A stretch of DNA of 36,089 nucleotides from Klebsormidium nitens. Taxonomy: Eukaryota; Plantae; Klebsormidiophyceae. The notes under the pieces were generated by a model that saw only the letters and a program-made list of their open reading frames with translations, had not been told where the DNA came from and ran no database searches. The stretch spans positions 1 to 36,089 of the forward strand of contig DF237703.1 in NCBI GenBank assembly GCA_000708835.1. Reading direction: 5' to 3'. The first letter of the stretch is position 1. Each line of letters opens with the position of its first letter. Shown piece after piece: positions 1,829 to 27,100 of the stretch. Made by a program: the position numbers and the translations under genes.

Positions 1829-2257
1829 GGCGTGGTCTCATAACACTTTTACAGCGACTGCACGAACGCCGACAATTGAAATGGCGGAGGGGTGGGTCGG
1901 CGGCTGGCGAAAGTGCCCGGTGGACGAGCGGGTAATGGGTCCGGCGGCGGCGGCAGCAGCCGGGAAAAGTACCCCGGGCGGACCCGCCCGCAAATACCAA
2001 GACGGTTTTCAATATATTGTGGTAGATTTAGGCTACTTGACATACGTATGAGATACTAGCAATGGATATGCGCTGATTTCGTACCCAATTAGGCCGTATT
2101 CTGCGTTATAAGCGCAGTTTTTAGGTTCTCAATTGCTGGGGGGTCAGCCTGGCGGCTGGCGTGAAAAGTTTCGCAAAATTCTGGGGGTCGGGGGTGTGGC
2201 GGCCGGCGAATTGTCGGCGTTCGTGCGGTCACTGTCAAAGTGTTGTGAGATCACGCC
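1829..2257. repeat. About 49-bp inverted repeat pair (1829-1877 / 2209-2257) enclosing about 330 bp; possible MITE or non-autonomous DNA transposon remnant
   Basis: GGCGTGGTCTCATAACACTTTTACAGCGACTGCACGAACGCCGACAATT matches the reverse complement of 2209-2257 with about 5 mismatches. No TSD found. Confidence 0.55.
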
Positions 2258-2501: not shown

Positions 2502-2505
2502 CTAT
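2502..2505 (+). other. 4-bp target site duplication CTAT (left copy; right copy 19229-19232)
   Basis: Left flank is C-CTAT|TGTGCTCTCT and right flank is AGAGAATACA|CTAT-G. The duplication does not extend to 5 bp. Confidence 0.85.
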
Positions 2506-3681
2506 TGTGCTCTCTGTATAGGCCCGCTCCATCAAGGGCCGCACCAGGTGTACCGACCAGTGAAAGATTGCCACGTGGCGACAGGAGACAGGTGCAGATA
2601 ATACGCGGCTCCGCAGTCGCGCCTCCGGGGCCTGAACACCGGATCAATTCAGCAGGATCCGGGGTTTAAGGATTAGGACTACGGGGGTGAAACTCCCCGC
2701 GTAGAGTAAACCTTAGCCGTAAGATTGGATTTCAGCGGTCGTTCCATACAGACCGGGGCCGTACGATGACAAGGGTAGATCTTGTCTTTTGATTTCAAAT
2801 AGGAAGTCTAGGCTAAGATGCGCGGAGTAGGTCCAGAATACTACCACAGTGATTAGTTCCGGAGTTCCGTCACCTTGCAAAGTGTTCCAGTACCTCACTG
2901 AGAATCTGCGCTAAGGCTATTTTGGTCCTTGTGCAGGTTCTCCGGAGACCTTCGGGACTTCAGGGAGCAAGTGACAACTCCGGACAGACTCCGTTACTGA
3001 GTAGTTACGTAACTTCATACTCCATTAGCCCGGCTTCTAGGACGATAGGACTTGACGATTAGGCATCCATTCCAACTTCTCTCGCTAGACAGCATCCTTG
3101 TAAAGCGCCGTTGTAGTGAGCAGGAAGGGTCCGCTGCCAGTGTTTTCAGCACGGTACCGCAGTGTAGCAGTGTGTTCTCCGCCAATCTCTTAAGGACACC
3201 GGTCTATAACCGGAAGCATTGTTCATCCGCCAGCCATTTATCCGCAGCTCCATTCAGTCTTTCCAGCGCTATTCAGCAGGTGGCATTCGCATGGCAGGTA
3301 TGTGCACCCATGGCAACCGAAGGGGACCTCCCGATATGGTGGCTTGACATGAGACGGGGCTCAACACGTTTGCAAGGCTGTATGTGTGTGTGGTGAAATT
3401 GAAAGTATTGCATGTGACCTCGACTCCTTAAGCTGGAGCGAGACTCAAATGGTATGGGACATTTGAGCATGTGTTGAATACTACTACTGTTTGCTAGGCT
3501 AGCCTGGTCAAGGGCCTGCCACCATCGACTTCCGCTGCGTAGATGAGATAGTCCCCCGCGGTTTACAGACAGGTACCCCCGGTGACTGTGCTTGTAACCC
3601 CGGAACTACTGCATCGCTACTCGACCTCGCTCTAGTTGCAACCCCGCGGTCAAGTGGGCTTGCTACGGAGGTGGTCCTCTC
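2506..3681 (+). repeat. 5' LTR (1176 bp; ends ...GGTCCTCTC with no terminal CA)
   Basis: Direct repeat of 18041-19217. Manual alignment gives about 19 substitutions and 1 indel (about 98.3% identity). Confidence 0.97.
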
Positions 3682-3692
3682 TGGTATCAGAG
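3682..3692 (+). promoter_or_regulatory. Primer binding site, tRNA-iMet type
   Basis: TGGTATCAGAG directly follows the 5' LTR and is complementary to the 3' end of initiator tRNA-Met (canonical plant PBS TGGTATCAGAGC). Confidence 0.92.
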
Positions 3693-3747
3693 GATTGGTT
3701 CCCTTTCTTCTCGACCTAAAGCAAACAGGTTTGGAAAAAGCAGGAAC

Positions 3748-3860
3748 AACAGGTGGACCCAGCCTTCAAGGGACAAAACAGGTGGACCCAGCCTTCAAGG
3801 GACAAAACAGGTGGACCCAGCCTTCAAGGGGAACAGGTGGACCCAGCCTACAAGGGACAG
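3748..3860 (+). repeat. Tandem repeat, 4 copies of a 29-bp unit in the retroelement leader
   Basis: AACAGGTGGACCCAGCCTTCAAGGGACAA at 3748, 3777, 3806 (26-bp variant) and 3832 (variant). Confidence 0.95.
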
Positions 3861-3935: not shown

Positions 3936-6400
3936 ATGGTGCAGCTCAATGGAGCCCCGGATCACGCTGATGAGATGAGTCTGATTGGAATTCGCACACG
4001 CCGTGGCACTCTACTGCAAGGGGCAACAGAGACCCCGGAACAGGTGAACCAAGACGGCGGAGCTGCCAATATCCAACAGGAAAGTCACTGGGATATCCCC
4101 TCTGCGCGGGACCCCTCTGACGACGTGAGCAGGGACAGGCACGTCTCTGCTACGAACTCCCTGTCTGAGCCCCGGCAGGGCCAGGCTGCGGACGAAGTGC
4201 CCAGGGGGACTCCACCCTTTAAGGAGAACCGGCCCAGCCTAGCCCCTCTCTTGGGCCAAGCCCCGGGGGGGCTTCTCCTCCGAAACAGGAAACTTGAATT
4301 GTTGCAAGGAGGCTACCTGCCCGGGACACAGGGACAGCTGGCGGAGGCAGAGGGCCGAGACCCCCCTCTCCAGGGAGCGAAATTATCGGGAGTACCAGAG
4401 GGCAGAGACCCCGTCCCCGGACTTCACTCGCAGCCGGTGTTACAGGAATGGCAACCGAGATCGACTCTGAACTTGAGCAGGACAGCGGAGCCAGCGTTTG
4501 GTCTCCAGAGCAAAACTTACCAGACGGTGGCACGAGCCACGACGCAGGTCAGTGGGCCAAGTAAAACCCCGGATGACTGGGAAGAGTTCCAGATGTATTT
4601 GACGTTTCAGAAAATGAAGAAGGAAAAGTCTCGGGGAACCGAAGCACAGGACCCGGAGCAGGAGGTTATTAAATACCAATTCGACAGGAGACACAGACTG
4701 CACAGGACTCTAACCCCCGGCAAACGTCGGAGGCCCTGACTCCAACTGCGCAGACTTATGTCTCAGCATCAGCCGGGGTCCAGGACCCCGTACCCCCTCA
4801 GAGGCTCCGGACACCGGAGCGCCTTTGGCACAACTACCACTACGAGGACAACAGAAGGGAGCCAGATCCCCCCCAGTTTGTACCCCCCTTTTCCACTCTG
4901 GCTAGAGCGGTTCGAGACCCCCCAGACAAGCCCCCGGAGGAACCCCCCAGACAACAGCGGGGACAAGCTATGTACCCCGCACAGGTCCCCGGAGGTGGCT
5001 TCCCAGGAGACCCGCCCCCGACGCCCAGCGTGAAGTCTGAACCGGAATCAGCGGTCAGGCCCCGACTTCAGCGAGGGGATGATTCCGCGGAAACCAAACA
5101 GCCTGACAGGACTCCCAGGATCTTTCAGCCCATCAAGGTGGTGACCTACAAGGGGACGAAGAAAGAGGAGGGCTTCCAGGCTCAGCGATTTATCAAGAGA
5201 ATGGAGACCTACCTCTGCAACACCCCGGGCCTCACCGATGGACAGATGGGACTCACGCTTTTCCACAACCTTACATATGGGGCTCAGGATTGGGTACAGT
5301 CTGCCGACGACGCCTACATGGACCTCACCGGCGAGTCGCTCCTCCAAAATTGGGATGCTCTAAAGGAGAAGTTTTTGAACAGGTACGGCTAGACCGACCC
5401 CGCCGAATGCGCCGTCAAACTGGGACAAGTACAACAGGCCAAGGACGAAGCGGTGGGTACCCTTGCTCAGCGCATCCGAGACTTGTTCGTGCAGGCTGAC
5501 GTTACCAACGAGCGACTGAAAGTCCACCATTTCAAGACGGCGCTGCGCAGCCTGCTCCGCGAACAACTTCATACCCGTGGCCCTACGACTTTCGAGCAGG
5601 CCGTCGAGATCGCAGAGGAGCTAGACCGCGGACTCTAGGCCCTGGAGAAAGCCCCGCAGGCAACCCCCAGGATCCCTACCAGGACTCCGGTCAGGGCTCC
5701 CAACTACGTCAGGACAGCGGAGGCCCAGGCCACTGACGATCCCGGCGATGATCCCCCCGAGGAGGACGGTGATACGGTGCGGTTTTCCCAGCAGGGCCTC
5801 CTCCCCGAACCACGCCCCCCGCGCGCGAAAACAACAAGAAAGACGCCCGCAGACTGCGCGACCAGAGGGACGGACCAAGGGAGCCACGGGACAACAAACG
5901 CGAACCACCGCGTGAACAACGCGAACAGCCCCGCGAACAGCGCGAGCCTCACAGGGACCCCAGGGAGCAACGCGACCAGAGAGACCTGCGCGAAAGAAAC
6001 AACGGCGGATGGGGGCGCCCGAGGGACAAGCCCCGCGACTGCTGGAACTGCGGTAAGACAGGTCACTTCAAAGTCGACTGCACGGAGAAGGAGAAGGACG
6101 GCCTAATCCGCTGGACGTGCGGAGACTGCCCCCATCCGGACCAGGACGACTACGAGGCGGAGACCGTCTATGACGACTACGAGTCTCCCTGCATTCTCCA
6201 CTCCACGTTGGACAAAGGGTGGGAAGAGGAGAAGCCAAAGGAGACACCGAGGCGCAGCCCCTCCGCACCACCCCGGCACGTAGCCCCGGCCACAGGAGAA
6301 CCCCCCCGGCGCACTTGCTACTCGTGCGGTCGCCCCGGACAACCAAAGCCGCATGTCTCGGCCGCCTGCCCTAATGGAACCCCCAAACCGGAGCCTAAAG
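3936..6400 (+). pseudogene. gag: gag: long disordered N-terminus, Retrotrans_gag-like capsid region, CCHC nucleocapsid
   Basis: Capsid-like segment FQAQRFIKRMETYL...NWDALKEKFLNRYG*TDPAECAVKLGQVQQAKDEAVGTLAQRIRDLF...FKTALR...PTTFEQAVEIAEELD (4970-5635). Zinc knuckle CWNCGKTGHFKVDC at 6040-6081. In-frame TAG at 5390 and 5636; frameshifts at about 4673-4736 and about 5825. Start at ATG 3936 and fusion of the 3753-4739 ORF to gag are inferences. Confidence 0.85.
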
Positions 6401-7020
6401 TACAGATGGCTACGGGCCCCCTTGGATGGGAGCACGAACCGGAGTTGGACCTTTCCGACGATGACTACTACGAGGAAGACACCTGCGACAACGTCAGGGT
6501 CACCCGCGGCGGCCGCGAGCTACTGGACGAGAGAGGCGCCCGAGTCAAACTCCCCGCCAACCGGGTCCCCATCATGACTACCGGACACATCGTCCCTTTG
6601 CAGGTACCAACAGGAACGTATCGGGGCACGCCCAGCGGCATGCGCCCAGGGCTCCCGGACCGACCCCCGTTGATAGGCAGCCTAACCCCGTCAAGACGAC
6701 CCCGGGGCATCGCCCCGGCCACAGAGAACGCCGCAGGACGAGCGACGTCAGCCCCCCCGGTTCCGTGCCCCTCTGTCTCCGGCACTTTTCCGTTGAGCTG
6801 GTTCCGCTCAGAGGCCTATACGGCTCACGGCAACCCGCAGCTCCTGCAGGATATGGCGCGCACACTGAAGAAGGTTGGACAGGCTAGCACGGCTCCTAAC
6901 CCGGATGACTTCACCGGTGCTGCCAACGTGCGGAACGCCACAGCCTCAGCTGCCTCTTCCCCGCCCACAGAGGACGAGCCGGTGGTCGAACGAGTGTTTG
7001 TCAATCCCCTCATCCGAGAG

Positions 7021-7380
7021 AGCATTGCGTACGTCGCCGCACGCATAGGCGGGGTACGCGGCTTGGAAAGACCAACTTGCATCGACTCCGGCGCGGACGT
7101 CAACGTTATGTCCCTGGAGACCGTCAGAGCCGCAAGTCTGGAGCACAAGTTCCGCCCAGGAACCCCAACTTTTCTGCAGGCAGATGGAAGTAGCACGACC
7201 GCGGCAGGCTGGGTCGACACCGCCGTTGGACTCGGCAAAAATCTTGAGATCTGCGCACGTTTCCTGGTACAAGACAACTTGAACTACGACGTCTTGTTGG
7301 GAACTACCTCCATGAAAAAGGTCAACGGCGTCATCAATTTCCAGAAAGGCAGGTTCGAGTTCCAACTGCCGCGGAGCCAC
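7021..7380 (+). pseudogene. pol: Retropepsin aspartic protease domain, in frame with the gag NC region
   Basis: CIDSGADVNVMS (DSGA at 7084-7095), LQADGS flap and YDVLLG motif. Confidence 0.9.
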
Positions 7381-8581
7381 AAGACCTGCGCTCTCAACCT
7401 CATCACGCCTCCGAAACGCGCACGGGCTCGACCACAAGTCACGGTGATCAATGCAGGAAGACACCGCGTAGGACCGTTTCCGCCGCCGCCAAGCGCTCAC
7501 CTGCTCAGACAGCGGGATGGCGACACCGGGGTACCCCAGCCAGGACTGACCCAGCTCCCTGACGACAGCGACTCTAACGGCGTTCCCTCGCTCCTCTACT
7601 GTAGCGACTCTGACGACGACGACGACGATTGCGGCGGCATGCCAACTCTCCTGCCCCCCTTGCCGACCCACGCCGATCCGGACTGGACGCCCGCCGACCG
7701 CCGGCCCCTTCAGTTCACTTTGTGGGTTCGACCCGACACACCGGCAAATACGGCGGCTGCGCTCGAACGCGCAGGCGACCTCAGGATTGCAGGTCTCGAA
7801 ATCGGGGAGCTGCTCCGGACCGGGCAGCTATAGGTGCGAGAGACGGAGACTCCAGCACGCCAGGTGCTTCCCCCAATAGACTACGACACCGACGAAGACA
7901 TGCCAGAACTTGTGGACGACGAACCCCGGACTCCACCCGCGGTTCCCAACCCCGTCTTCAGCCACAGCGCCTGGCTGTCGGCCCCGACACGCCACGGCAA
8001 AAGGTGGCGCGCCGACTGGAGACGCCCTCACTCGACGACCGTCCGGCAGCTGACTTACATGGACGACACCGTCACGTGGATTCACCAGCCCACAGCGGAC
8101 TCCGAGGAGGACGAGCCGACTCCGGCAGATGCGGAACCCCTGTGCTGCTCGCCCGTCACCATGCCGAAAGATCCACCAGACGAACCAGACCGGGGAATCA
8201 TCCTAACCTCTCCCCAGGCCATGCGCCGGTTTTTCAACACCATGGCACAACAGGGTGACTACAGCGACGAATACGCCACGGCGCAGATCGACACCTACAC
8301 GCAGGCCCATCGCCGCTTCAACGTCGACGAGTTCCTTCACCCTGTCCCAACCAGCCTGCTGGAGAAAATACCCCCGGAGTTTCGCGCCAGCGTCCTTTTG
8401 GCGGAGGCGGAAAGCGAAGCCATCTCCCCCGACCCGGACAGCGGGCAGCGCGATCACGCTGACTGGGACAACAACCCCTTTGGACTCCACCTCCCGGCGG
8501 TCCAGCTAGCAACAGAGTGCGCTCAGGTGGAAGCCCAGTCCCTGCCCCGACTCCCCGACGCAGAACAGTACGTGGGAGGCG

Positions 8582-10010
8582 GTGCGACCCCAGCTACAGA
8601 TTGCGGAGAGTCTAACCGACGAAGAACGGAGGCGGATGACGGAGGTCTTACAGAGACACCCTCACGCCTTCTCCAAAGACCCTTCCGACTTGGGACTCGT
8701 GCGGGGCTTTACCCACAGGATCGACACCGGTGACATCAAGCCCATCAAAAAGGGCAGCCGTGCCCACAGCCCCTTTGAGAAGGAGGAGATTGACAGGCAG
8801 CTCAAACCAATGGAGGACTACAACGTCGTACGCCCCTCGAGCAGCCCCTTTGCGGCCCCGGTAGTGCTCGCCAGGAAGAAGAACGGCAAGTGGCGTTTCT
8901 GCGTCGACTACAGGGACATCAACGCCGCGACCATACCCAACAGCTACCCTCTACCGCGGATTGAGTCGATCTTCTCCAAGCTGGGCCCCGCGAAGCAATT
9001 CACCTCGCTCGACGCACAGTCTGGCTATTGGCAGATACGCATGCACCCAGACGACATCCCAAAGACGGCGTTCCTAACCCACCGCGGTCTGTTCGAGTTT
9101 CTGCGCATGCCCTTTGGGCTGACAGGGGCCTCGGGGACCTACCAGATGGCGATGGACCAGACGCTGAAGGAGGAGATCAACGGACCTAACCCCGTGGTGA
9201 CGCAGTATCTTGACGACACGCTGCTTTACACGGAGCACTTTGACGACCACTTGTTGGCGTTAGACAGAATCCTCACCAAGCTCGAAGCCATCAACCTCAA
9301 GCTCTGCCCCTCGAAGTGTCAATTCGGCGCTGACGAGACGGAGCACTTAGGGCACCTCATCCGGCACAACCAGCTCCTGCCAACCCGGAGAAGGTGCGCG
9401 CGGTGCGCGACTGGTACCGGCCGATCAACCCCACGGAGATCAAGAGTTTCCTCGGCATCCTTGGCTACTACAGGATTTTTATCCCCCGCTTTGCGGCGCT
9501 CGCCAAACCCCTGCACGACCTCACCAAAATCGGAGTCCCTTACATCTGGGGCGATGACCAGGAGCGGGCCTTCTACTTGATGAAGCAGGCGCTGATGGAC
9601 GCGCGGGCGCTCACCCGGCCGGACTACACCAAACCGTTCCTGTTGGACACCGACTTCAGCAAACTCGGCATCGGAGCTACTTTAAGTCAGCTCGACGACG
9701 AGGGCAAGGAGTGCCCCGTCGCGTTCGCTTCCAGGGCGCTACACGGCGGAGAGGTCAACTACTCCGTCACGGACGGGGAGCTGCTAGCGATGGTCTGGGC
9801 GATCACCGACAAGTTCCGCTCCCACCTGTACGGCGGACCAACGTTTACCGTACGAGTCGACCATAATCCGCTGGTCTGGCTGCATCAGCTGACCAACCTC
9901 ACAGGACGGCTCGCCCGCTGGCATTGTAAGCTGCTGGAGTTCAACTTCAAGGTCATCTACCGCCCCGGCCGGCTGCACTCCAACGTCGACCCCCTCTCCA
10001 GGAACCCCGT
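8582..10010 (+). pseudogene. pol: Reverse transcriptase and RNase H (Ty3/Gypsy type), 1-nt frameshift at about 9380
   Basis: RT motifs SSSPFAAPVVLARKKNGKWRFCVDYR, YPLPRI, SLDAQSGYWQI, KTAF, MPFGL and YLDD (9206-9217). RNase H motifs FLLDTDFS..GIGATL, NYSVTDGELLA, VDHNPL, RLARW, YRPG..HSNVDPLSR. Confidence 0.97.
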
Positions 10011-11429
10011 CGAAACCCTTCCCTGGGCCTCCAACGAAGACCCCGACGAACTCCCCAGCTACGCGGCTCCGGACTTCGAGTACCCACCCACCCACCCTCA
10101 TGTCCGGATTTTGCAGGTCGCTTGGGACGGCGACTTCTGCGAGGGATGGAGTTTGAACCACTTGAGCTCTTTACCCCGGTACCCGACAGGGACAAAGAAA
10201 CGGAGATGGAACTCGAAGCCCCGGACGTGAGCCCCGCAGGAGCCCCGGTCAAGACCATACAGGAGGACGAATCAGAGGAAGATCCCCTCAACCGTACAGG
10301 CCGCGACGACTTTTTTCGATGAGGAGACGGATACAATCCCAGACACGGACGAGAACTTGTTCTTCCGACCTTGGTCTGATGACGAGTGCCCAGTGGTGTT
10401 TCATATGACGCTGGAAGACCCCGGACAAGGGGTACAGAGAGCGCAGACGCAGGCACCCGACTTGCCGCCCGCTGAAGACTTGGAACGAGCGCCAGGAACG
10501 GAGTCTCTGGACGAGCCGCCCGACGGAGGAGCCAGCACTAAGGGGAGTCTCAAAGACGCCGCCTGCTGATCACTCCACGCTGCCGCAGACGCAGGCACAG
10601 GAGAGAGAGACACCGGACTTTGGCGGAGACCTTGGAACGCCGCAGTAAACGACTGAAACACAGGCATCCGATCTGCCCATCGCTAACTTCCTTTCACAGG
10701 CACAGACGCAGTCTCTAGACGAGCCGCCCATCGGCGCAATGGAGCCAGCACAGGGGAGCGCCCACGAGACGCCTTCCGCTGACCGCTTCGCGCTTTTGCA
10801 AACGCAGGCACATGAAAGAGAGACGACGTCTACGGAGGAAGAAGAAATGATTGCCATGCTCACGGGCAACCTGGACCAGCATCTCGGCTGGGACACACAG
10901 CAGATTTTGGAAGGTGCCACGCGCTCGACCAGGGCAGACAGGATGAGAAAAGAACCGGAGGGGTTTGACGCTGATGTACTGCAGGTACTAACGAGACAGC
11001 GGAACTTCGTCCGAAACGGAGGATACCAGACCCCGTTGTCCCAGTCGACCCTTGTCGAAAGGGTCGCCATAACCATTCTCACCGCCTGCCCCGGTGTGCC
11101 CCCGGACGAGGTCCTCGCCGAAGCCAAAAAGGCTATCCTGAATATGAGGGAGGACTACACTGAGAACATCATATCTGCGGTCCGAGACAACCTCCGCAAT
11201 CGCAGCCAGCCTGCGCTTAGCGAGGGGATTGAGGAGGGCCCGGCAGCGGAGACCGCGGCCTCAGCGGCTTTTGACCTGACCAACTTACCCCTCCCCGAAC
11301 CAGAGGAATATTTGATTGAGGATCCACAGGTGGTCGCCTACTTGTGCCGGGGTCAGCTCCCAGATCTTACGGAGCTCAACGTCAAGCAGCGAAAGGAAGC
11401 TAGACGACAGATCCGCGACAGGGCCCAGC

Positions 11430-12674
11430 TATGAGTATCTCAACGGCAGGCTGTGGAAGTTAGACAGGCCCCGCAGGAAACCCAACCAGATCCCCGGACC
11501 TACGACCAGACGAGCGGTTCTTTCGACAAAAGAGAAGGAGTTGGTGCTCAAACAGATGCACGACCTGGGAGGACACCCCAGCATCCCAAAGACACGGCGC
11601 CTGATCAAGGAACGCTTCTTCTGGAAACGTATGTACGAGGAGATCAGGGATTACATCGCGACCTGCGCTGCCTGCCAGATGACTGATCAGCCCACCACAG
11701 AGCGTACAGACGGCCGCACTCTAACCAGCACGGAGGTCGACCTCCCCCTGGAAAAGGTCGGGTTTGACCTGCTCGGACCCTTCCCCAGGATGTCGGAAGG
11801 CTTCGAGTACGTTTATATCTGGTATGACTACTTCTTCGGATGGATCGGCGCCGGACTTGGCCGGAGCAAGGACTCGAAGGAGGTGGCTGCCTTCCTCAAA
11901 ATGGACTTGTTTGCAGCGCACGCGTGCCCCGCCGTCATCGTGATGGACAACGACGCTTGCGTAGGCGAGGTCAAGGAGCTATGCGACCAGATGGGATCGC
12001 TCGTGCAACTCATCATAGCCTACTGCCCCCGCATGAACGGCGGGGCGGAGGCCTCGGTGAAGCTGGTCACAAAGAACATCCGGAAGCTCATCCTCCAGCA
12101 CGGACTTGAGTGGGCAACGCACATCTTTGAAGCACTCCTAGTAGTGCGAATCTGTTACCGTACAGCCACCAGGTTGAGCCCCTTTGAGATCATTTACGGC
12201 AGACTCCCGGTGCTCCCAGCGGAGCGCCTCCTGCAGACCCGGTACAGGATTCAGGAACCCACCTCCGCGGAAGGCGAGGCGCGAGCAGAGGAGGAGTTTG
12301 ACGGAGCAGTGCGCGGCTTGTGCGAGTCCAGGAGGCTCAACATTCTTCTCAGACAAGCGCATCAAGCCAACATGCGCGCAACCGCGGCTGCAAACAGGGA
12401 CATATCATAGATTCGCGCTGAGGCGGCCTATCAACGCCGGCAACACCGGGGAATCTATAGGGTAGCCAACCTTGTCCCCGGACAGCTGGTCATCATGAAA
12501 AAGGCCAAGCGCGAGCACAAGTTTGACACCGGATGGGAGGGACCCTACAGGTTTCTCTACTTCTATGACGAGGCTGCGCAGGTGGCAGTGCTTGAGGACC
12601 AGACCGGACAGCGCTGGACGCGTCACATTGTTATGCTACACCCCTATCAGCCGCGCGCGGCGGCCCAGGAGTAG
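11430..12674 (+). pseudogene. pol: DDE integrase with HHCC zinc finger and GPY/F motif; no chromodomain
   Basis: HDLGGH...FFWKRM...CAACQ, catalytic-type motifs GFDLLGP / VMDND / NGGAEAS, in-frame TAG at 12408, then GWEGPYRF and a stop at 12672-12674. Confidence 0.93.
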
Positions 12675-13120
12675 TAGTACGCGCGACACTACACCGCGCG
12701 GCTTCCGCGTCGATATCCCCGACGCGCGGAGTTAAAATCCTAGGGACTTAGGTTGACCGGCGATCGAGACTAAATTTACCGGCCCGACTAGCGAGCCCAA
12801 ACTCCGGAGCTTTTACCCGGAGCTTACTCCGGAGCTTCTTCCCGGAGTTACCAGGAAACGGCGGACCAAAACCCCGTCAAACCCTGCAATTGAAACCGCG
12901 CGACCATCGACACAGGCGCCGGGCGTAACAAACTCCGCGGTAGACCCCGGAGTCGTCATTTTGCAGATTGCCAAGCCCCGCATTTATTGCCCCGGATTCA
13001 GACCGCAGCCTGTCACATCAACCTTCTACTCAGCGGATATCCCGGCGCGGCAAGTTGCAGGGCTGACTGGGATTTGAAAGAGTGACCGGGGGAATAGGAA
13101 CCTGTCACATCATTGGTGCC

Positions 13121-16100
13121 ATGACTAGTAAGGATCAGTCTCTGAGAGCTCCCAGGGGAAATCCACCGGAGAACCCCAGGCAGGCAGGAGACTTGCATCC
13201 CACTCCTCAATCACCAAAGATTCAAGTGGACACAGATCCAGGGTTCAAGTTGAACAAGCGTAAGAGGGAAAAGGGCGCCAACTTTCAGAAAGGCATTGCA
13301 ACCTCCCCACCAGTCAGCGCCAAGAGACCCAACAGGTTGGAGGCCCTATGGGCAGCAGCGTCCGCGGTGTTGATACCGCCAGCAGGTAGTTCACCCCAGC
13401 AGGGAGGGATGGCAGAGGAGGCAGAGGAGACTCCGGGGCATGCTCAGTATACAGGGAAGCAGCAGGAGGGAGTGTGGAGACCAGCCCCGGAAGACTCATT
13501 CAGACAGGGTTACGGGGACATCCCGGCGTTGTTTGATGGTGAGAAGAAGGATGTTTGGGAAAGTGCCATTGCATTGTTCAAAGGAAAGAGGGAGAGTAGC
13601 AACAAGGAGACACTGGAGTCGGAGGCTCTGAATGTGATTGGGTCTGTCTTTCCGGGGTTGCAGGAGGAGCAGGTGGCTCCCCATGTTTTAAGCCAGGTGC
13701 AGGTGGTTGTGTGCTTACCGGAGGATTTTGATTCCTCTGAGTTCTACCAATACTATGAGCAGAACCCCAACCGGTTGCAGACGGCGGTCATCCTCCCCAA
13801 GCCCAAATCCAAACCCAAACCAAAGCAGGTTCCACCCCCCTCCCCACCGGATACGGAGATACTCACAGGAAGCCAAGTACCTATTGCACAGATGACTGCT
13901 GCAGGTGCTAGGAAGCAGGCCCGCAAATCCAGGTCAGCAACACCCAAACCGCAGGCAGTGGTCACCTCCGTGAGATATCCAACCATCTTCTCCTCTTTTG
14001 AGCAGGGAGCAGGACCCTCCGGAGCTGGTGAGGAGGCAGACGTTGAGGAGATCCCCCAGATCACCACGGAGAAGCCCCGGTCCAGACCTGCCACCAGAGG
14101 ATTGCAGAGGGCCATGGCCGCTGTTACCACAACAGGTCCCCCCTCCCCCGCTTCCCAGAGACCCCCGCCCCAGACCTGGAACCTCTCCTCACTCCGGACT
14201 TTTGTTCTGAACAAACGTCAGGCCCAGCAGCTGGCAGTTGCCCAAGAGTTCAAGAAACTCCGGAGTGACTACCAGCCCCCCCCTCAGCCCAAGCTAAAAC
14301 TTTCCACGTCCCTCACCGGGTACGCCCTGACAGTCCTTAAAAGGGATTTCCCGGGACTAGCCACCACTGACACACCGGGACAGCCATCCCTCCTCATCTC
14401 CCAGGGCAACCCCATGCGAGACAGCGACGGGATGACCCAGCAGGTGGCTCGCAGGCTGGCGACTTGGGCAGCGGCCTACCCCCAGGGACAGGACCCCCAG
14501 ACCAAAAACCCCCTGTACGTCAGTTTCAACGAATCGGCGTTTCGAAGGCTAGCCAAGTAGGTAGTCCAGGGGCCCACAGCGGTGGGGGAATCAGCGGGAC
14601 TTCTGACCGAAACCGGAAAGTTTGTTCTTTTTCGGGGCGAGAGCGTGAGCGAACTGGAGCGTAACGACTTTATCCCCACCCTCTACCTCCGCAAGGATGG
14701 CAAAGGCGCGGTAACCCTCTCCAGAGTTGGGGACCTCCGGACTAAGGAGGACATGGAGAAGTTCCGCTCCAACCTGGACAAGCTGACCACGGAGATGGAC
14801 ACCCTTGGGGAAGTTCTCTCTAAGGAGAAACTGAATGGCCACAAAGCCCCGGTCTTGGACCCCGGACAGAAGGTCTTCCACACCCTCCCCATCTACTTCT
14901 CCCTCGGGCTGCGGATCTTCCTCCCCCCCGTTCCCACACCGGACGGAAAATACTTCAAGTTCACTAGGTGGGAGATTCCTCGACAGCACGCGGTGGACCC
15001 CAAAACTCTGACCCCCGGTGACCCGCTGTTCGTCATTGATGACAGCAACAACAGGTTTGCCGGCGTCTGGTTCACGGCGTTCTGTGACTTCCCGGATCTT
15101 CCCGACGGGGGTGGACCCTGCCCTGTGGACCTCCTCCACTCCGCCTCTGACATAGACGCGATGGCCGCGGCGTTCGCCGTTGACGGAACAAAACCAGTTC
15201 CGGCCAACAACACCCGCTTCATATTCTACAGATTTATGGGGGGGTACCAGGGCGGGGATTGGACTCCACAGTTTTGCCCCGTATCGCAGTTCCGGGCGGT
15301 GCGCTACCACATTATGGAGGCCCGAACCTACGCCAAGAAAGGAGAGGAACGCTACCTCTGCCGCGAGCTCTCTTCCACCGAGTCCCCCGCGGGGATGGTC
15401 TTCACCCCTGGGTTTTACCAGACTCCGCCGGAACAGGGGAAGCCTAAAACCAACATCCCCCAGATCAGCATCTACTCCGAGTACATCTCCTGGCTCGACC
15501 GCCGGCTGGTCCCCTTCCCGGAAGCCGCCGTGACGGAGTTCAACAACCTTACACATCCCTACCGGTGGTTCGAGGATTTCAGGCTACCAGATGACCTCTA
15601 CCCCTACACTTCCCCGTGCGCGCCAAAGGGCATCCAGACCTGGGTAGCGGAGCTTTGGGATCAACAGGGAAACGAAGACGACGTGGTCTGCATCTATGGC
15701 AAGACGGAGCTCCCCGTATTCCCAAGCCTGGCAGAGGAGCGCCAGGAGACCCTCAGAACGCAGCAGCAGGAGGCCGCCAGGGAGACCCCCGGGTCGAAGC
15801 GGAAGGCGGAAGGGCCAGCAGAAGAAGTGGCGAGGAGAGGGAAGAAACGAGGCCCGACGCGGAGCCCGGCGCCGGGGCCAGCGACGAGGCTGTCTGCTCT
15901 GGTTGTTTTCGCCAGAAACCTCATCGCCGGAGGTCCGGACAGATTTGACGAGAACGTGAGCCAGTTGATGCTCACCTCCTCCCCGGCGGCAAACTCCCCG
16001 CAAATTTCCGGAACAAGGACTGGTACGCCTTCTTGGCGGAGATGGACGACCTCATCCCACAGATTACCCTCAACCCCCTCGACGCGACGGAGTCGCCTCT

Positions 16101-17950
16101 CTTCGAGTTGTTCCTGCAGATCGCCACGGCAGTCGCCCCCCTCTCTCGAGATGCCGCCAACATCTTTGTCAGGCTGGCAAACGGCGTCCTCAAAAGACAG
16201 GACCTGGCGGAGGTTCTCCGTTTCTGGAGGAACTCTGAAAACAAACCCAGCGACTGTGATAAGCGGGACAAGGAGCGCGACGACGCCGAGCGGGAAGAAG
16301 AAGAGGAGGAACATGAGGAAGGAGGCGGGGACAAGGGAGCGCCGGAGTATGAGGAAGAAGGCGGTGTGCCGGGGGGGAAAGGAGGAAGCCCGGGTGCGAG
16401 AGAGGGGACTCCGGAAGGCGGAGACGAGCAGGGCGGTGAAGAAGGCGGAGAACAGGGGGGCTCCGACAAGCCCCGAGATAAGTCCCCAACTGCCGGCCTG
16501 GGCGAAGTTCAGCAGACAGCGGCGCTGGACCCCGGACACCTCACATGGCGATTTAGCGGCGCGCAACCGCGCAACTTGCACGGGTTCAGGTCTCCTTCCC
16601 CCCGGCGCGGGGTCTCGCAGTCCTCATCCGAGGAGCGGACACGACGGGGACGCTCCGCGAGTCGTTCCGTTTCCAGCGGACGCTCCAGCTCGCCGTCCGG
16701 AACGCCCCCCGGACGCGCGGTAAGGTATCGCTCTGTCTCCCCAGTACTTACGCGCCCAGCTCGTACAGAGACTTTCCCCCCAGCCGTTTATCGGTTCGAC
16801 CCCGACGTGTTCGAACCAGAGGGGTCAGAGCAGGTGTGTTACTCGACGGATGAGCCGGACGACTTCGCGGACCTGGGGGAGGGAGAGGAGGAGAGCCCCA
16901 CGGAGACCGACCCCGACGCGCCCAAACCGGGGCCGCCCTCCGCATCCAAGGGGGATGGCAAGTTCCCGTCGCCAGAAGGGCGCCCGAAAGGCGGGGTTAC
17001 AAACGGAGCCAAACCCCCAGTGCGGAGCAGACTAATCCCCCAGAAGAGACCAGTCCAGGAGAGACTGTCCGGGCCTTCCGGCGGCGAAAAGACCCCGCTG
17101 AAACACCGTCTGGGCCCGTCCCTCACGACCATCCCCGTTCGTGAGCGACTTGGCCCCGTCAGAAACGACGCCCTCAGTCACAGCCCCAAGACGGAGCCCC
17201 AAAACCCCAACGGGGTGAAAAAACCGTTTAGGCCCCAGACCCCTTTCCCGAGAGAAGAACGACGAGGTGACCTCCCCGCTACGCGATCCTTCGACAGCGG
17301 TGCAAGCTCGCCTCGGACCCCTCCCTACACCTAAACCCTCCGCCTTCGACCGCCTTTACGGTGCCCCGGTGACCGCGCAAAAGCGCACTCGTTTCGACGA
17401 GATCCCCACAGGAATCACCGTGGTCGAGGCAATCAAGACAGTGAACCAGCTCCGCGAACAGGTTAAAACGGCGGAGCGAACGAAGGAAGCGCTTGAACTC
17501 GCAGTACAGGCACTCCGCGGGGCAGATGCAGCGGCGGGGGAACAGAGCGACTGCGCGGCGCTGGCCCAAAAGGAAATGGAGATTTCTAACCTACGCATGC
17601 AGATTGCCGTGGCGGAGCACACCAAGATGGCCGTGGCTAGACGGGAGACGGAGAAAATCCACGAAGAAGTGGCGGAGTTTATGAAGGGGAATCCCAAGCG
17701 AATGAAGAAGCTGGCAGGCTTCTCCCCGGAGCGTGAACACTCCGGGCGTGGTGAGGCATCACGGCGGTTGGGACCCCCGCCACCCAAGCATTTCACCGAT
17801 TCGGGCCGCACCAGGACAAGGGAGAGGTCTCCTGCCTCTTCCGTCATCACGACCGCGGCGGAGCGCCCCACCACGGGGGCGCTGCGACTGCGCAACATGA
17901 TTGGCGCTACCCAGGCTCGTCTTCAGACAGGCTGGGACGTTGCGCCCTAG
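13121..17950 (+). pseudogene. Large additional sense ORF (about 1,600 codons when repaired) of unknown function inside the retrotransposon
   Basis: ORFs 13082-14560, 14582-about 15997, about 16000-17220 and about 17222-17950 join into one frame after repairing one TAG (14558) and two 1-nt homopolymer indels. Codon and GC character match gag-pol. No TM or signal peptide seen. Confidence 0.8.
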
Positions 17951-18020: not shown

Positions 18021-18034
18021 GAGGGGATAGAGAA
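18021..18034 (+). promoter_or_regulatory. Polypurine tract region
   Basis: GAGGGGA-T-AGAGAA upstream of the 3' LTR. The exact plus-strand priming site cannot be read from sequence. Confidence 0.75.
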
Positions 18035-18040
18035 TACAGC

Positions 18041-19228
18041 TGTGCTCTCTGTATAGGCCCGCTCCATCAAGGGCCCCACCAGGTGTACCGACCAGTGAAA
18101 GATTGCCACGTGGCGACAGGAGACAGGTGCAGATAGTACGCGGCTCCGCAGTCGCGCCTCCGGGGCCTGAACACCGGATCAATCCAGCAGGATCCGGGGT
18201 TTAAGGATTAGGACCTACGGGGGTGAAACTCCCCGCGTAGAGTAAACCTTAGCCGTAAGATTGGATTTCAGCGGTCGTTCCATACAGACCGGGGCCGTAC
18301 GATGACAAAGGTAGATCTTGTCTTTTGATTTCAAATAGGAAGTCTAGGCTACGAAGCGCGGAGTAGGTCCAGAATACTACCACAGTGATTAGTTCCGGAG
18401 TTCCGTCACCTTGCAAAGTGACTCAGTACCACACTGAGAATCTACGCTAAGGCTATTTTGGTCCTTGTGCAGGTTCTCCAGAGACCTTCGGGACTTCAGG
18501 GAGCAAGTGATAACTCCGGACAGACTCCGTTACTGAGTAGTTACGTAACTTCATACTCCATTAGCCCAGCTTCTAGGACGATAGGACTTGACGATTAGGC
18601 ATCCATTCCAACTTCTCTCGTTAGACAGCATCCTTGTAAAGCGCCGTTGTAGTGAGCAGGAAGGGTCCGCTGCCAGTGTTTTCAGCACGGTACCGCAGTG
18701 TAGCAGTGTGTTCTCCGCCGATCTCTTAAGGACACCGGTCTATAACCGGAAGCATTGTTCATCCGTTAGCCATTTATCCGCAGCTCCATTCAGTCTTTCC
18801 AGCGCTATTCAGCAGGTGGCATCCGCATGGCAGGTATGTGCACCCATGGCAACCGAAGGGGACCTCCCGATATGGTGGCTTGACATGAGACGGGGCTCAA
18901 CACGTTTGCAAGGCTGTATGTGTGTGTGGTGAAATTGAAAGTATTGCATGTGACCTCGACTCCTTAAGCTGGAGCGAGACTCAAATGGTATGGGACATTT
19001 GAGCATGTGTTGAATACTACTACTGTTTGCTAGGCTAGCCTGGTCAAGGGCCTGCCACCATCGACTTCCGCTGCGTAGATGAGATAGTCCCCCGCGGTTT
19101 ACAGACAGGTACCCCCGGTGACTGTGCTTGTAACCCCGGAACTACTGCATCGCTACTCGACCTCGCTCTAGTTGCAACCCCGCGGTCAAGTGGGCTTGCT
19201 ACGGAGGTGGTCCTCTCTAGAGAATACA
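18041..19228 (+). repeat. 3' LTR (core 18041-19217) plus 11-nt extension T-AGAGAATACA ending in CA
   Basis: Direct repeat of 2506-3681. The extension duplicates 18028-18038 and is followed by the TSD CTAT. Confidence 0.95.
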
Positions 19229-20299
19229 CTATGACATCATCGAAATTGACCGTACACGGTACGAGTCGGAGTCACGACTTCAATTTTGTACGGCGCTCGA
19301 GTCGGCGACAAGACCCGACTCGGTAGTACCTATTTGGAACCGCTTGACTCAACTGGTCGCCGCCCCAAGCATGACACAACTCAAAACTGCCGGCCTGATG
19401 GGGTCGCCGGGGTCGGGGGGGGTCCCGGTCCCCGGGAAGTTTTTGAGCGTCGGGCCGGCCGGACCAATCAGAAGTTCTTTCGGAAGAGGCATCGGACGGC
19501 TTCGATAACCTTCAAAACTTCTCAGGTACTGAATCTTGCGGTCGAAATAACTTCTTGTAACTTCTCCGCATCTCCCGGAAATCGATCGGACGAGTCACAT
19601 AACTTCCCAACCTGTGAAAAGGGGCGTCCATCGGACGGTAGAAGAAACTTTTGCAGGGTCATCTAGCGGCGCAGAGGTAAGGAAGTACTCAAATTTTAGA
19701 AGGTGCCACGCTGGCAGCGCTGCCAATGCTCTAGCCTCTGTGAAGCCTCGGAAGTTGGAAGGCGCCGCAAGAATCAGGAGCTTAGCCTTGCAAGTTGCCA
19801 GCCGTGCTATTGCAATGCAGCATGAGTCCATGGTCGAAATAGCGGCTTGGCAGCCTTCAAAGAGCTCTGAGCATGCTGCCTCAGGCCAGATTGCACACCG
19901 TCTGGGTCGAGCGGCTGAATGGCGGCAGGCATGAAAGTCATCCCTTGGAATTGGGCACAATTGCCAACTAAAAGATGCCCGAAAGGCGGCTCTGCAAGAG
20001 CTGAAATGCAACAAGGCAGAGGAGAGCTCTGCAAGATCATGGAAAGTGTGGCCTGTTTAGCAGGCAGAGCACTCAGGGTGAGCTGCCAGACGTTCCTGAT
20101 ATGATCAAATATTCTGTGGTGCTGAGCATTTTGCATCTTAACATGCAACGTATTCCAATGACTGCTGTTCCTTTCACCTGATGTGACCTGGCGCCGTGAC
20201 TCAGCATGTTTTCAAGGTTTTCAGGCTTGTATACACGAATTTTCTGTGCACGTTCTCCGGCAGTTCTACCTTCAGCGACCACTTACGTGCAAGTAGATT

Positions 20300-24121: not shown

Positions 24122-27100
24122 CTATTGCGACTCCCTTTGTAAAAGCGTAAGCTCTGTCTCCCAGTCAGCTTGCTCAGAACCATTGGCTTCTAGCTTAACG
24201 ACCTGCAAATAGACACCCCAATAATGCCACTGACGAAGTTACGATGGCAAAATTTCAGCTTCGAATATTTGCAACTTTTCCCCACATTTCAGAAAGTCGA
24301 GCTTCGGCCAAAAGATGCTGCCGCCCAGCAGACTTTCTTGGGCGCACTCACAGAAGGCGTGCGCTCAACGAGGCAGCTGGAGGCGACCTACCTCTCGCGA
24401 CCTTCCCGTGTCTTGCTCTGGCCGAAGCCAGTTCAACGACACCCCGCAGTTGATAATACTAGGCATCAACCGGAACATGATTGGAGTGGTTACCTGCACA
24501 AGACGGAAAGGAGCAATCGGCTTTGCACACGGAATGCCAAGTGAGTTGCTCTTCATGAAAATATCGCCGGTTTCCGGAAGCTGTTGTCTTAACGGAAGCG
24601 TTTGATGGCAAGGCTCCAGAAATTATCGAGATTCTCCACGCGTTATGGCATTGCCAGCAGGCAAGCCACCTCTTTGGCTGAATACGCCGGAGAACTGAAG
24701 TTTCTTTTCCAAGCACTCCTTGATGAGATTGTCTCTTCAGAAAATCCACTGTTATCAGTCGATTAGCCGGCAAAATATCATGAGGTTGAGTCCTCTGTGA
24801 TCGATCCATTGGGCCGTACGTACAAAACGTCAAGCAAATCCAAAAGTTCAGAAGTATCCACGAAAGAGAGCATCTGTATTTTGTGGCAGAGCATCTCCAC
24901 AATCTCTAGGCTGATCCCTCCGGCCGTTCAACACGAAGTGTCAACACAAACGAGCATAAGCCCGAACAAAAGCAATCTAATTGGAACGCACTTACGCGCT
25001 GATCCACATAGAAAGTAGCAAAAGTAGTAGCAGTTAGCGGAATCCTTTTGCAACTTTGCTCCCTTTCTGCTTTACGCTCCGAAAACACGAGGCCATGAGC
25101 AGACCTGACAAGCAGAGCAGGGACTTACCAGACTCAGGGCAGTAGTTCCCAGTAGCAATAAGTAAACCCGCCGCTGCAAGCACGCGGCGCATGCATTAGC
25201 AGTTGTCGCATTAACCTAAGGGCACCCAGATGACTAGTTCGTTGAGCAGACCAGAATATTTCGCTTCGGAGTTACTTCAGCTAGTGGCCATGCTTCTAGA
25301 TTCCGCACCGATGCAAGCCTGGGGCTGAAGGATAGCAGACCCCTGCAATCTTTCCAAGCAAGACAATGCGAGGTGCAGCGCAAGCGAGAAAAGCTCAAAG
25401 CTGCCGCCCACAACGGCAGAACCTTGCAACCAAAGATGCATACTGAAAGCAAAGAGTCTTGGAGGTTAGATAAATATTAGCCCCAGATGCCGGAATCCGG
25501 GGGTTCCTGAGCTCCTAAAGGTTTGAACACTAAACGCCCAAGGTCTAAGCCTATATTCTTAACACCTTGGGAAACTGTGTTCCGGGGCCTGTCTGCAGAG
25601 TGCGCACCTCAATCAGATTCACGTTGGACGCTCGACTGAGCAAGACAAACGCAAATTCGCCGATCTGGGCCAGCGAGATGCCGACCTACGCATGGAAGAG
25701 GGAGTCAGCGGGGGCAGCAATAGGGTTAAAGCGGCTTCAGTGAAGGGGACTATAGCAGGGGGCAGCTTCAAAACTGGAGATAACTCTGCAGTGACTTGTT
25801 CGGAACTGTTCGATGGGCACCAGGTAGGGCACAATACTTAACGCCAGCTCTAAGCATCACGATCTTCCGAACATCGAAGTTTCATGCACTGTAAATCTGC
25901 AACCTGCTGTTGAACCCTGTTTCCAGAAGGAAGTCCAAATGGCAATCTGCACAGGATGAGGGGAAGACGTGCACGGCAATGATCTGGAAGAACCTTTCGA
26001 CAAGTTACAAGTACGAACCAGAACTTATTTTTGGATCCTAGCAGTTCACAGGTCCAAGGATCCTGACCATCAGTGCGGTGCGCAACGAGTAGCCAAAGCC
26101 GCGCACAACAGTGGTGACGAGAGTGGTCTTGACGACGAACACAAGGACGACAGAGAGGCAGAGAATGTCCTTGTGCTGCCACAGGAAAGTGGGGTTCATC
26201 AGCATCCCAATGCTGCTGAGGAACAGCGCTGCAAACACGTTGCGCACCGGCTCCACCTGCAACCAACACGAGAATTAACAAGAGTTGATTTCAAGCTTGA
26301 AACTTGTCATGTTGCGGAGTTTTGTGTCTAGGCAAGTGCCTCAAACACACTTTGCAGCAGCTCCGCCTAAGCCGTCGACCATAGCTTCAGGACGCTGGAG
26401 AAATCAAAACCTCTTTGCCAAAAGAATCTGGGATTGCAGGCGGAATGTGCTAAGTTCTCAAACGAGAGTGCGGGAATATGGTCTTCTGAAGAACCGGACT
26501 CTAGAGCTCCACAATGCCAGCAAGGAGAACAATTCATGGCTCAACCACCAAGCTCCTACCTTCACAGGGTTGGTAGACTCGGAAGAAAGCACTTTTCGCA
26601 CAAAAAAGGGTAGAAAACGCGGATTGCAAGAGCAAGCCATCAGCTACAAACAAAAGGCGGAAAATGATAGACAGGAAAAGATGAGACTCCAAGATTCGAA
26701 CGCTGACTCAAGCAGAGAAAAAAGACAGCAGAGACAAACACGGGCTTATCCAAAGCAAGGAGCATCGTTAGAAACAACATGTTGAGGGACAGCAGGAGTC
26801 ATACTTTGACCTTCGTCGGACTTTCGTCGAGTTTAATAACAGTGTTCCACAAAGTCAGCAAACATGAGAGCATGCAGACCAACCGCCACCCAGCAGTTGA
26901 GAATACGGATAGAGCCAGAGGGCGGAATAGGAGAGGCCGCACCTGATGCAAGGTGTGCTCTTGGTACTGCGTGGATGAGATCATGACACCGGCCGCAAAG
27001 GCCCCCAGCTCCACACTCAGGCCGCACTGGTCCGTGACCTGCAAACGCGCAACATTGAGGGTTGTCTGTTGAAGCTTCAGCATCTCAGGTTTGTGATTTA

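Follow-up and report, generated by a model that had tools for sequence, protein, structure and literature searches.

A decayed Ty3/gypsy element of 16.7 kb, with reading frames broken by frameshifts and stops, was found in a contig of Klebsormidium nitens (the window, meaning the whole stretch of 36,089 nt that was analysed), with an overall layout of TSD-A-PBS-internal-PPT-B-GC-A-B-TSD, where A is the LTR core and B is the sequence AGAGAATACA. The 5′ LTR ends without B and a B-GC stands behind the PPT, and the same arrangement was observed in the sequencing runs X20, X21 and X4. By its proteins the element is a Ty3/gypsy element, but it is a variant rather than a canonical LTR element, and its permuted layout is a family trait rather than a one-off; that the permuted ends are real and family-wide is, in our judgement, nearly certain. 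As the best account of their origin we propose, with moderate confidence, a ligated or circle-like 2-LTR precursor in which the integrase makes a 2-nt staggered cut at CA^GC-TG. The initial annotation of the window had read the ends in a similar way, as the mark of integration from an end-to-end junction through an internal palindrome; the family-wide architecture, the logic of the join and the geometry of the cut held, whereas the by-products that it predicted were so far not among the forms listed, and its claim that no such layout had been described has to be corrected.

Layout of the element and sequence of its ends

The coordinates of the features are collected in Table 1. The domain order (gag-PR-RT-RH-DDE integrase), a tRNA-type PBS adjoining the 5′ LTR, a PPT preceding the 3′ LTR, TG...CA ends and a 4-bp TSD are shared with canonical Ty3/gypsy elements (Metaviridae). 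In the latter, unlike in the window element, a CA precedes the PBS (6 of 6 control pairs), nothing like B-GC lies between PPT and TG, the LTRs are equal and the integrase is D-35-E; the two equal TG...CA LTRs bounded by PPT and PBS, by which Ty3/gypsy elements are recognised, were not found here. The TSD (CTAT on both sides, with a chance probability of about 3e-3) is within the 4–6 bp range of Ty3/gypsy elements, its length resting on the window copy, the single one for which both flanks were seen.

Table 1. Features of the permuted Ty3/gypsy element, in window coordinates.
Feature	Coordinates	Strand	Basis
Left TSD, CTAT	2502..2505	+	Sequence; in run X4 the LTR start is preceded by this copy's left flank
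A1, 5′ LTR core, starting TGTG and ending CCTCTCT, no CA; last T is the first PBS base	2506..3682	+	Sequence; core-to-PBS join also in X4 and X20
PBS of initiator-Met type (TGGTATCAGAG...), putative tRNA pairing	3682..3695	+	Sequence
Leader tandem repeat, 29 nt, 4 copies	3748..3859	+	Sequence
gag zinc knuckle (about 6040-6087) and aspartic protease (about 7039-7317)	5773..7833	+	Pfam matches; upstream gag frames carry stops
Reverse transcriptase, frameshift at each end	8510..9580	+	RVT_1, E 2.4e-28
RNase H	9334..10230	+	RT_RNaseH, E 8e-31
DDE integrase: N-terminal extension, HHCC finger, D-33-E core, GPY-type C-terminal part	10649..12674	+	Profile and alignment comparison
Extra 3′ ORF region, no assigned function	13067..17950	+	ORFs, about 4.9 kb
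PPT, GAGGGGAT; purine run extends into B, 13/14 purines to 18034	18021..18028	+	Sequence; common to sibling families
B1, AGAGAATACA, U5-type attachment arm behind the PPT	18029..18038	+	Reverse complement against LTR start, 8/10
GC spacer between CA and TG, missing from both element ends	18039..18040	+	Sequence
A2, 3′ LTR core	18041..19218	+	LTR alignment
B2, AGAGAATACA, right element end	19219..19228	+	Sequence; same join with other flanks in X20 and X21
Right TSD, CTAT	19229..19232	+	Sequence; bridged by record 6 of X1

All the strings and positions given in the initial annotation were confirmed in the window sequence. The two LTR cores are identical at 1158 of 1177 aligned bases, with one gap, and none of their differences lies beyond column 783 of 1178 (p about 3e-4). 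Dating of the insertion from LTR identity was rejected, since the differences are unevenly spread and run contigs differ from the assembly, in which the LTR copies may have been merged. B occurs exactly twice in the window, from 18029 (behind the PPT) and from 19219 (behind the 3′ core), the chance probability of finding it directly behind the 3′ core being about 1e-6 per place. A single occurrence was found both for ACAGCTGT, at 18036, and for the PBS string, at 3682, with no B before the PBS. Core and PBS overlap by one base, the T at 3682, which closes the former and opens the latter; the same base stands ahead of each copy of B.

B is 10–11 nt long and is followed, between B1 and A2, by the GC spacer. 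B, read as its reverse complement, agrees with 8 of the first 10 bases of A, so that B and the start of A constitute an ordinary attachment-arm pair, set head to head around GC; the 22-mer at 18029–18050 is self-complementary at 18 of its 22 positions, a value equalled by 8 of the 36067 window 22-mers. The A2-B2 join forms a perfect 10-bp palindrome (19214–19223; 53 such palindromes are present in the window), which would give the cDNA short inverted repeats at its ends, such as a single protein could hold together. A fold-back model finds no support, a single-strand DNA hairpin at the palindrome being no stabler than shuffles (z 0.65). The position of the PPT cut site is uncertain. As for the PBS, its first 11 bases are also present in the control loci L030, L055 and L057, and in X20 it carries an A>G variant, a wobble-type change, which was also seen in L044/L053; no tRNA gene was found in the 36,089-nt window.

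Recurrence of the junctions in run contigs and other samples

Contigs from 8 of the 22 listed runs (X1, X2, X4, X5, X6, X10, X20 and X21) were aligned to the 3′ LTR region, with X5 giving no end information; such contigs drop rare forms. Runs X1, X2 and X4 are from the probable source sample, X20 belongs to study P12, X21 to P13 and X6 to P3. In the probable source sample, record 6 of X1 covers positions 19189–19288 with 0 differences, record 9 of X2 connects the internal region with the LTR across PPT-B-GC, and in X4 the core continues into the PBS and the window's own left flank precedes 18041. As these contigs span them, the window junctions are not assembly artefacts.

Independent insertions, in which the initial annotation had expected the same architecture, indeed share it. 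A contig of X20 departs from the core at 19218 into GGTATCGGAGG, which is the PBS without B, and another contig of the same run (1 contig) matches through B and exits at 19228 into a different flank. In X21, 3 contigs exit at 19228 with an agreement of only 0.58, which corresponds to unlike flanks, and a second right end in X4 differs by an additional A and by the variant AGAGAGTACA. On the left side, an LTR match starting at 18041 with unmatched sequence ahead was found in records 25 and 26 of X6 and in record 19 of X4; one X21 record starts from 18038 and one X10 record from 18040, and these two left ends may be due to chance or to a retained spacer. Five of the six joins seen were identical. 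The string PPT-B-GC-TGTG is common to sibling families that differ on both sides of it (X1, X2, X4, X6, X20 and X21), and the bin that contains it is the depth peak of the LTR (179 vs 21 in X4, 4266 vs 58–1315 in X6, 140 vs 22 in X2), depth being distinct from copy number.

Among 13 control loci of at least 7 kb, LTR pairs are present in 6, which represent about 2 families, and each of these loci shows CA-T-PBS; the remaining ones comprise 2 with contig-end overlaps only and 5 without an LTR pair. The metagenome scan returned at least 80 distant gypsy loci, of 32–46% identity, which served only as controls, and no lineage member was present among the matches listed. Neither the viral contigs nor the prokaryote genomes searched contained a match to the junction pattern, and RT and integrase searches of the viral contigs gave 0, 1 distant and 0 loci.

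Integrase and other proteins

The gag zinc knuckle was matched by Pfam zf-CCHC (E 6.6e-7), and two protease models gave E-values of 5e-4 and 1e-3, both short of their cut-offs. The RT is 99% identical to P0001, which is filed as Klebsormidium nitens. In a tree of 137 RT sequences, for which 7 of the 8 close relatives were long enough (P0046 was left out) and 18 of 81 loci were taken in, the 7 lineage RTs formed a clade of their own (support 1.0, stem 0.62), with a weakly supported sister group (0.82) in a tree built without labelled REXdb references for the plant lineages (chromovirus, OTA, Phygy and Selgy).

No Pfam match to a tyrosine recombinase, a DNMT or a ligase was obtained in the 59 longer ones among the element's 117 ORFs (70 aa or more), a search that a decayed or very divergent tyrosine recombinase could escape; the 7 lineage proteins scanned likewise gave no DNMT match. 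That the longer ORFs encode no ligase or recombinase by Pfam is an observation that speaks against a ligated circle. In the extra 3′ region, a single relative, P0136, was found for the part at 14561–15790 (58% identical residues across 56% of the query), and the extra ORF had no Pfam family and no Atlas match, its fold model being unusable (pLDDT 31).

The integrase of the window copy is interrupted by one frameshift and one stop, and its N-terminal extension is lineage-wide. A profile built from 13 lineage proteins matched the integrases of Ty3 (E 3e-16) and PFV (E 8e-14), against both of which a 2-residue deletion is seen after the second Asp. Spacing was counted in the 83 stored domains having both columns (14 of the lineage and 69 others): D-33-E is present in 13 of the 14 lineage domains (the remaining one being 31), and D-35-E in 66 of the 69 others. 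At the column of the loop Gln, 13 of the 14 lineage domains have W or Y and 58 of the 69 others have Q, the window copy having R. In a wider set of 175 domains from 145 further proteins, 5 were D-33-E; each of them carries W, Y or F in the position of the loop Gln, and these aromatic residues were found there in 0 of the 170 non-D-33-E domains. The structure model of the integrase was confident for the first 135 residues only, and a fold search gave only known integrases, with low TM-scores. The D-33-E spacing with its aromatic loop is the trait of one clade, a correlate of the permuted ends and not a test of them. In the PFV intasome the loop bearing the conserved Gln parts the viral DNA strands, and it may be speculated that a bulkier loop residue would suit the opening of an internal duplex.

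Origin of the permuted ends and its meaning

The need for a join was derived from the standard reverse-transcription scheme. Because the tRNA primer at the PBS sets the right end of the cDNA by what precedes the PBS, this end would read CCTCTC(T), with no CA. The right-hand B of the parent could not template the right end of the progeny, as in plus polarity it lies beyond the 5′ end of the minus strand; the minus strand offers templates for B at two places only, the PPT and the left end of the cDNA, and therefore B would be attached afresh to U5 at each insertion. Under tRNA/PPT priming we thus infer that the A-B join is made anew in each cycle and not inherited, and the idea that B is regenerated by an end-to-end join, already put forward from the window alone, is logically sound. 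When the window's own ends were joined in silico and cut after CA on both strands of CA-GC-TG, both observed ends were obtained and GC was lost. A join followed by an internal cut is, in some form, likely.

According to the route that we propose, a linear cDNA primed by tRNA at the PBS and, for its plus strand, at the PPT would have a B-GC-A start and a CA-less A end. The U5 end would then be joined to B, most simply in an intramolecular manner, by way of a 2-LTR circle or of a circle-like synapse, and the single T at the join could be a tRNA-derived base, the last base of the PPT or a 1-nt overlap of both. The integrase would cleave the palindrome beside the join, leaving two CA-3′OH ends with 5′-GC overhangs, and ordinary strand transfer would generate the 4-bp TSD, with GC dropped during repair. 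With the 3′ LTR serving as the source of B-GC and the 5′ LTR as that of the CA-less U5, the layout would renew itself at each cycle. More tentatively, and at slightly below even chances, we suggest a Ty3/gypsy clade in which the LTR-LTR junction form is the obligatory precursor, the two attachment sites are kept inside the element as a single palindrome behind the PPT, and this palindrome is opened in a restriction-enzyme-like fashion by a retuned D-33-E/aromatic-loop integrase.

A 2-LTR circle would contain two identical palindromes, one behind the join and one behind the PPT, so that unbiased cutting would give an equal share of tandem-5′-LTR copies ending in PPT-B. Tandem-LTR and one-LTR copies had been predicted in the initial annotation and did not turn up: the tandem joint (19228 to 18039) was not present among the joints listed in 8 runs, nor was a PPT-B-flank end (a loose end behind 18038) among the loose ends listed in 8 runs. 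The missing forms point, weakly, to a cut that is tied to the join.

The proposed cut geometry has a biochemical precedent, as PFV integrase was reported to cut the 2-LTR junction after CA on both strands, giving 5′-AT cohesive ends indistinguishable from processed ends (PMC1180852). HIV-1 integrase tetramers were reported to cleave their own junction with 4-base overhangs, a cellular role being left open by the authors (PMC1905944), and 2-LTR circles to feed integration after raltegravir removal (PMC4372172). The junction cleavage described for PFV / HIV-1 resembles the one proposed here in that a CA-NN-TG palindrome is cut after CA on both strands into processed ends with 2-nt 5′ overhangs. 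In those viruses, as described in these reports, the palindrome arises from the join and, because linear DNA integrates, the route is optional or disputed, whereas in the window element the palindrome is pre-encoded 10 nt from the join and a linear cDNA would lack the right-hand CA, thus making the join obligatory. The circle model of Panganiban and Temin, as recounted in PMC11054761, was abandoned when infected-cell extracts integrated linear DNA with 2-base, not 4-base, 5′ extensions (PMC11054761). This classical test cannot separate the routes in the present case, because the spacer is 2 bp and a junction cut gives 2-base extensions as well.

The main rival is a template jump of the RT that does without a closed circle, because HIV junctions made by host end-joining are reported to be exact in only 52–58% (PMC1905944), against five identical joins out of six here. 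Via the shared T, the 3′ end of the plus strand would switch to a minus-strand B, located either at the PPT or at the left end, and copy B-GC onward, and the integrase would then trim each end to CA by a long 3′ processing. Such a jump would require no ligase, would account for the exact joins and for the unlisted tandem and one-LTR forms, and its cDNA ends would form 5-bp inverted repeats (through the palindrome at 19214–19223); one shared T does stand ahead of both B copies, but a one-base overlap is little, and one X4 join has an extra A. Moreover, a self-complementary 2-bp spacer would be unneeded for a jump, yet CA-GC-TG is kept across sibling families. We know of no printed account of efficient end-to-end jumps by an LTR-type RT, which also counts against this route, and we consider it clearly less likely than the joined precursor.

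A one-ended integration completed by host repair is far less probable. A linear cDNA would indeed carry a single terminal attachment arm, so that the integrase could join the left end and the CA-less right end would be repaired by copying B from the other end, but the window copy has a clean 4-bp TSD, and the right ends stop exactly at the CA of B in X20, X21 (3 contigs) and X4, which argues for concerted integration at a CA end. The layout also corresponds to the A1-B1-A2-B2 split direct repeats described, together with a tyrosine recombinase, for PAT, Toc, Kangaroo, Ngaro and Viper (PMC4157794). This would allow a PAT/Ngaro-like route in which priming truly takes place elsewhere than at the PBS, the transcript extends across the right-hand B, B2 is directly inherited and a recombinase or the integrase inserts a circle. 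Compared with the elements of that description, the window element has a DDE integrase, a PBS, a PPT and a TSD; 2 bp separate its B1 from A2, and its B is very short. The scanned element ORFs gave no tyrosine-recombinase match and a DDE integrase is present, B is only 10–11 nt long, the ends are TG...CA with a TSD, the PBS is kept in X20 with a wobble-type change and the PPT is kept across siblings; we consider the PAT/Ngaro-like route as improbable as the one-ended integration. Finally, a one-off deletion, a misassembly or a B2 taken from the host target sequence, which the uneven LTR differences and a possible merging of LTR copies by the assembly might suggest, can practically be discounted, since run contigs span each of the four junctions, which were met again beside different flanks in other studies; B2 as target sequence was rejected, as the flanks behind B differ and the TSD lies outside B2, and both grounds on which the initial annotation had allowed for its own failure, a one-off or misassembled copy and a host origin of the extension, thus fall.

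A layout of this kind has been noted once before, in contrast with what had been claimed at first. For KnitGypsy-Dnmt3 of Klebsormidium nitens, the legend of Fig. 4c gives DIRS-type repeats (A-coding-B-A-B) together with Gypsy domains (de Mendoza et al. 2018, PMC5890265). By this description the two elements share the alga, the Gypsy domains and a DIRS-like repeat order; KnitGypsy-Dnmt3, unlike the window element and the 7 lineage proteins, in which none was found, has a Dnmt3-type domain in Pol. Repeat lengths, end sequences, TSD and mechanism were not found in the section of PMC5890265 that describes it, nor was the KnitGypsy name in other open-access papers. The window family is a new Ty3/gypsy variant, whose layout that section records but does not explain. 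No account of a join-then-cut route for any LTR element was found in the open-access literature.

LTR elements are held to integrate a linear cDNA bounded by PBS and PPT, circles being dead ends. A linear cDNA of this PBS/PPT-bounded kind cannot yield the integrated ends found in several independent copies, so that a join-then-cut step would be written into the genome itself. The element also offers a defined 22-bp substrate and intact natural integrases for testing the cleavage of an internal palindrome, which is a matter of dispute for HIV-1 and foamy virus. The elements from which REXdb was compiled had paired LTRs with TG/CA termini (PMC6317226), and surveys with such a requirement likely miss or mis-delimit families of this kind, which may therefore be commoner than recorded. 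If the join-then-cut reading is true, the abandoned circle-junction model would describe the normal life cycle of a natural element, and the family would represent a DDE-integrase counterpart to the split-repeat recombinase retrotransposons.

Integrase clade and the additional ORF

A D-33-E spacing, together with W, Y or F at the position of the loop Gln, was found in a small integrase clade that includes the integrase of the window and the related database proteins P0012, P0121-P0138, P0143, P0150 and P0165. An N-terminal extension is conserved across this clade, and a long helical insert is present ahead of the GPY part. Downstream of the integrase, an additional, globular-looking ORF returned neither a family match nor a usable fold in family search and fold prediction; one relative, the database protein P0136, was found (58% identity).

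Features of the element and of the remaining window
Feature	Position	Strand	Observation
Inverted repeats	1829-2257		49 nt, 90% complementary, 331 nt apart; MITE-like
5' LTR core	2506-3682
Integrase	11316-12410
Additional ORF	14561-15790
3' LTR core	18041-19218
Dispersed repeat	19429-19477		Very high contig depth, many unlike flanks (sequencing runs X1, X2)
Na+/H+ exchanger match	26802-27299	-	Weak (E 3e-5); probably a host-gene exon

LTR differences and variant ends

In the 1178-column alignment of the two LTR cores, all 20 differences are confined to columns 1-783 (p about 3e-4), an uneven distribution for which assembly merging, gene conversion and a chimeric LTR are alternative explanations. 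Among contigs of run X4, from the probable source sample, a second right end was detected at 19219. It contains a single additional A and carries the variant AGAGAGTACA, which is explained either by imprecise joining or by origin from a sibling family. A divergent left end was carried by record 9 of run X21 (another study), whose match starts at 18038 (window 18038-18041) and in which a non-PPT flank is followed by AGC and then by TGTG; this AGC is either fortuitous or a retained GC spacer.

Termini of the LTR core

The core starts with TGTGCTCTCT (2506-2515) and ends with GGTCCTCTCT (3673-3682), alike at 8 of 10 positions, and the reverse complement of B, the 10-nt attachment arm, matches the core end at 7/10. 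The likeness among core start, core end and B may be a trace of how the permutation arose.
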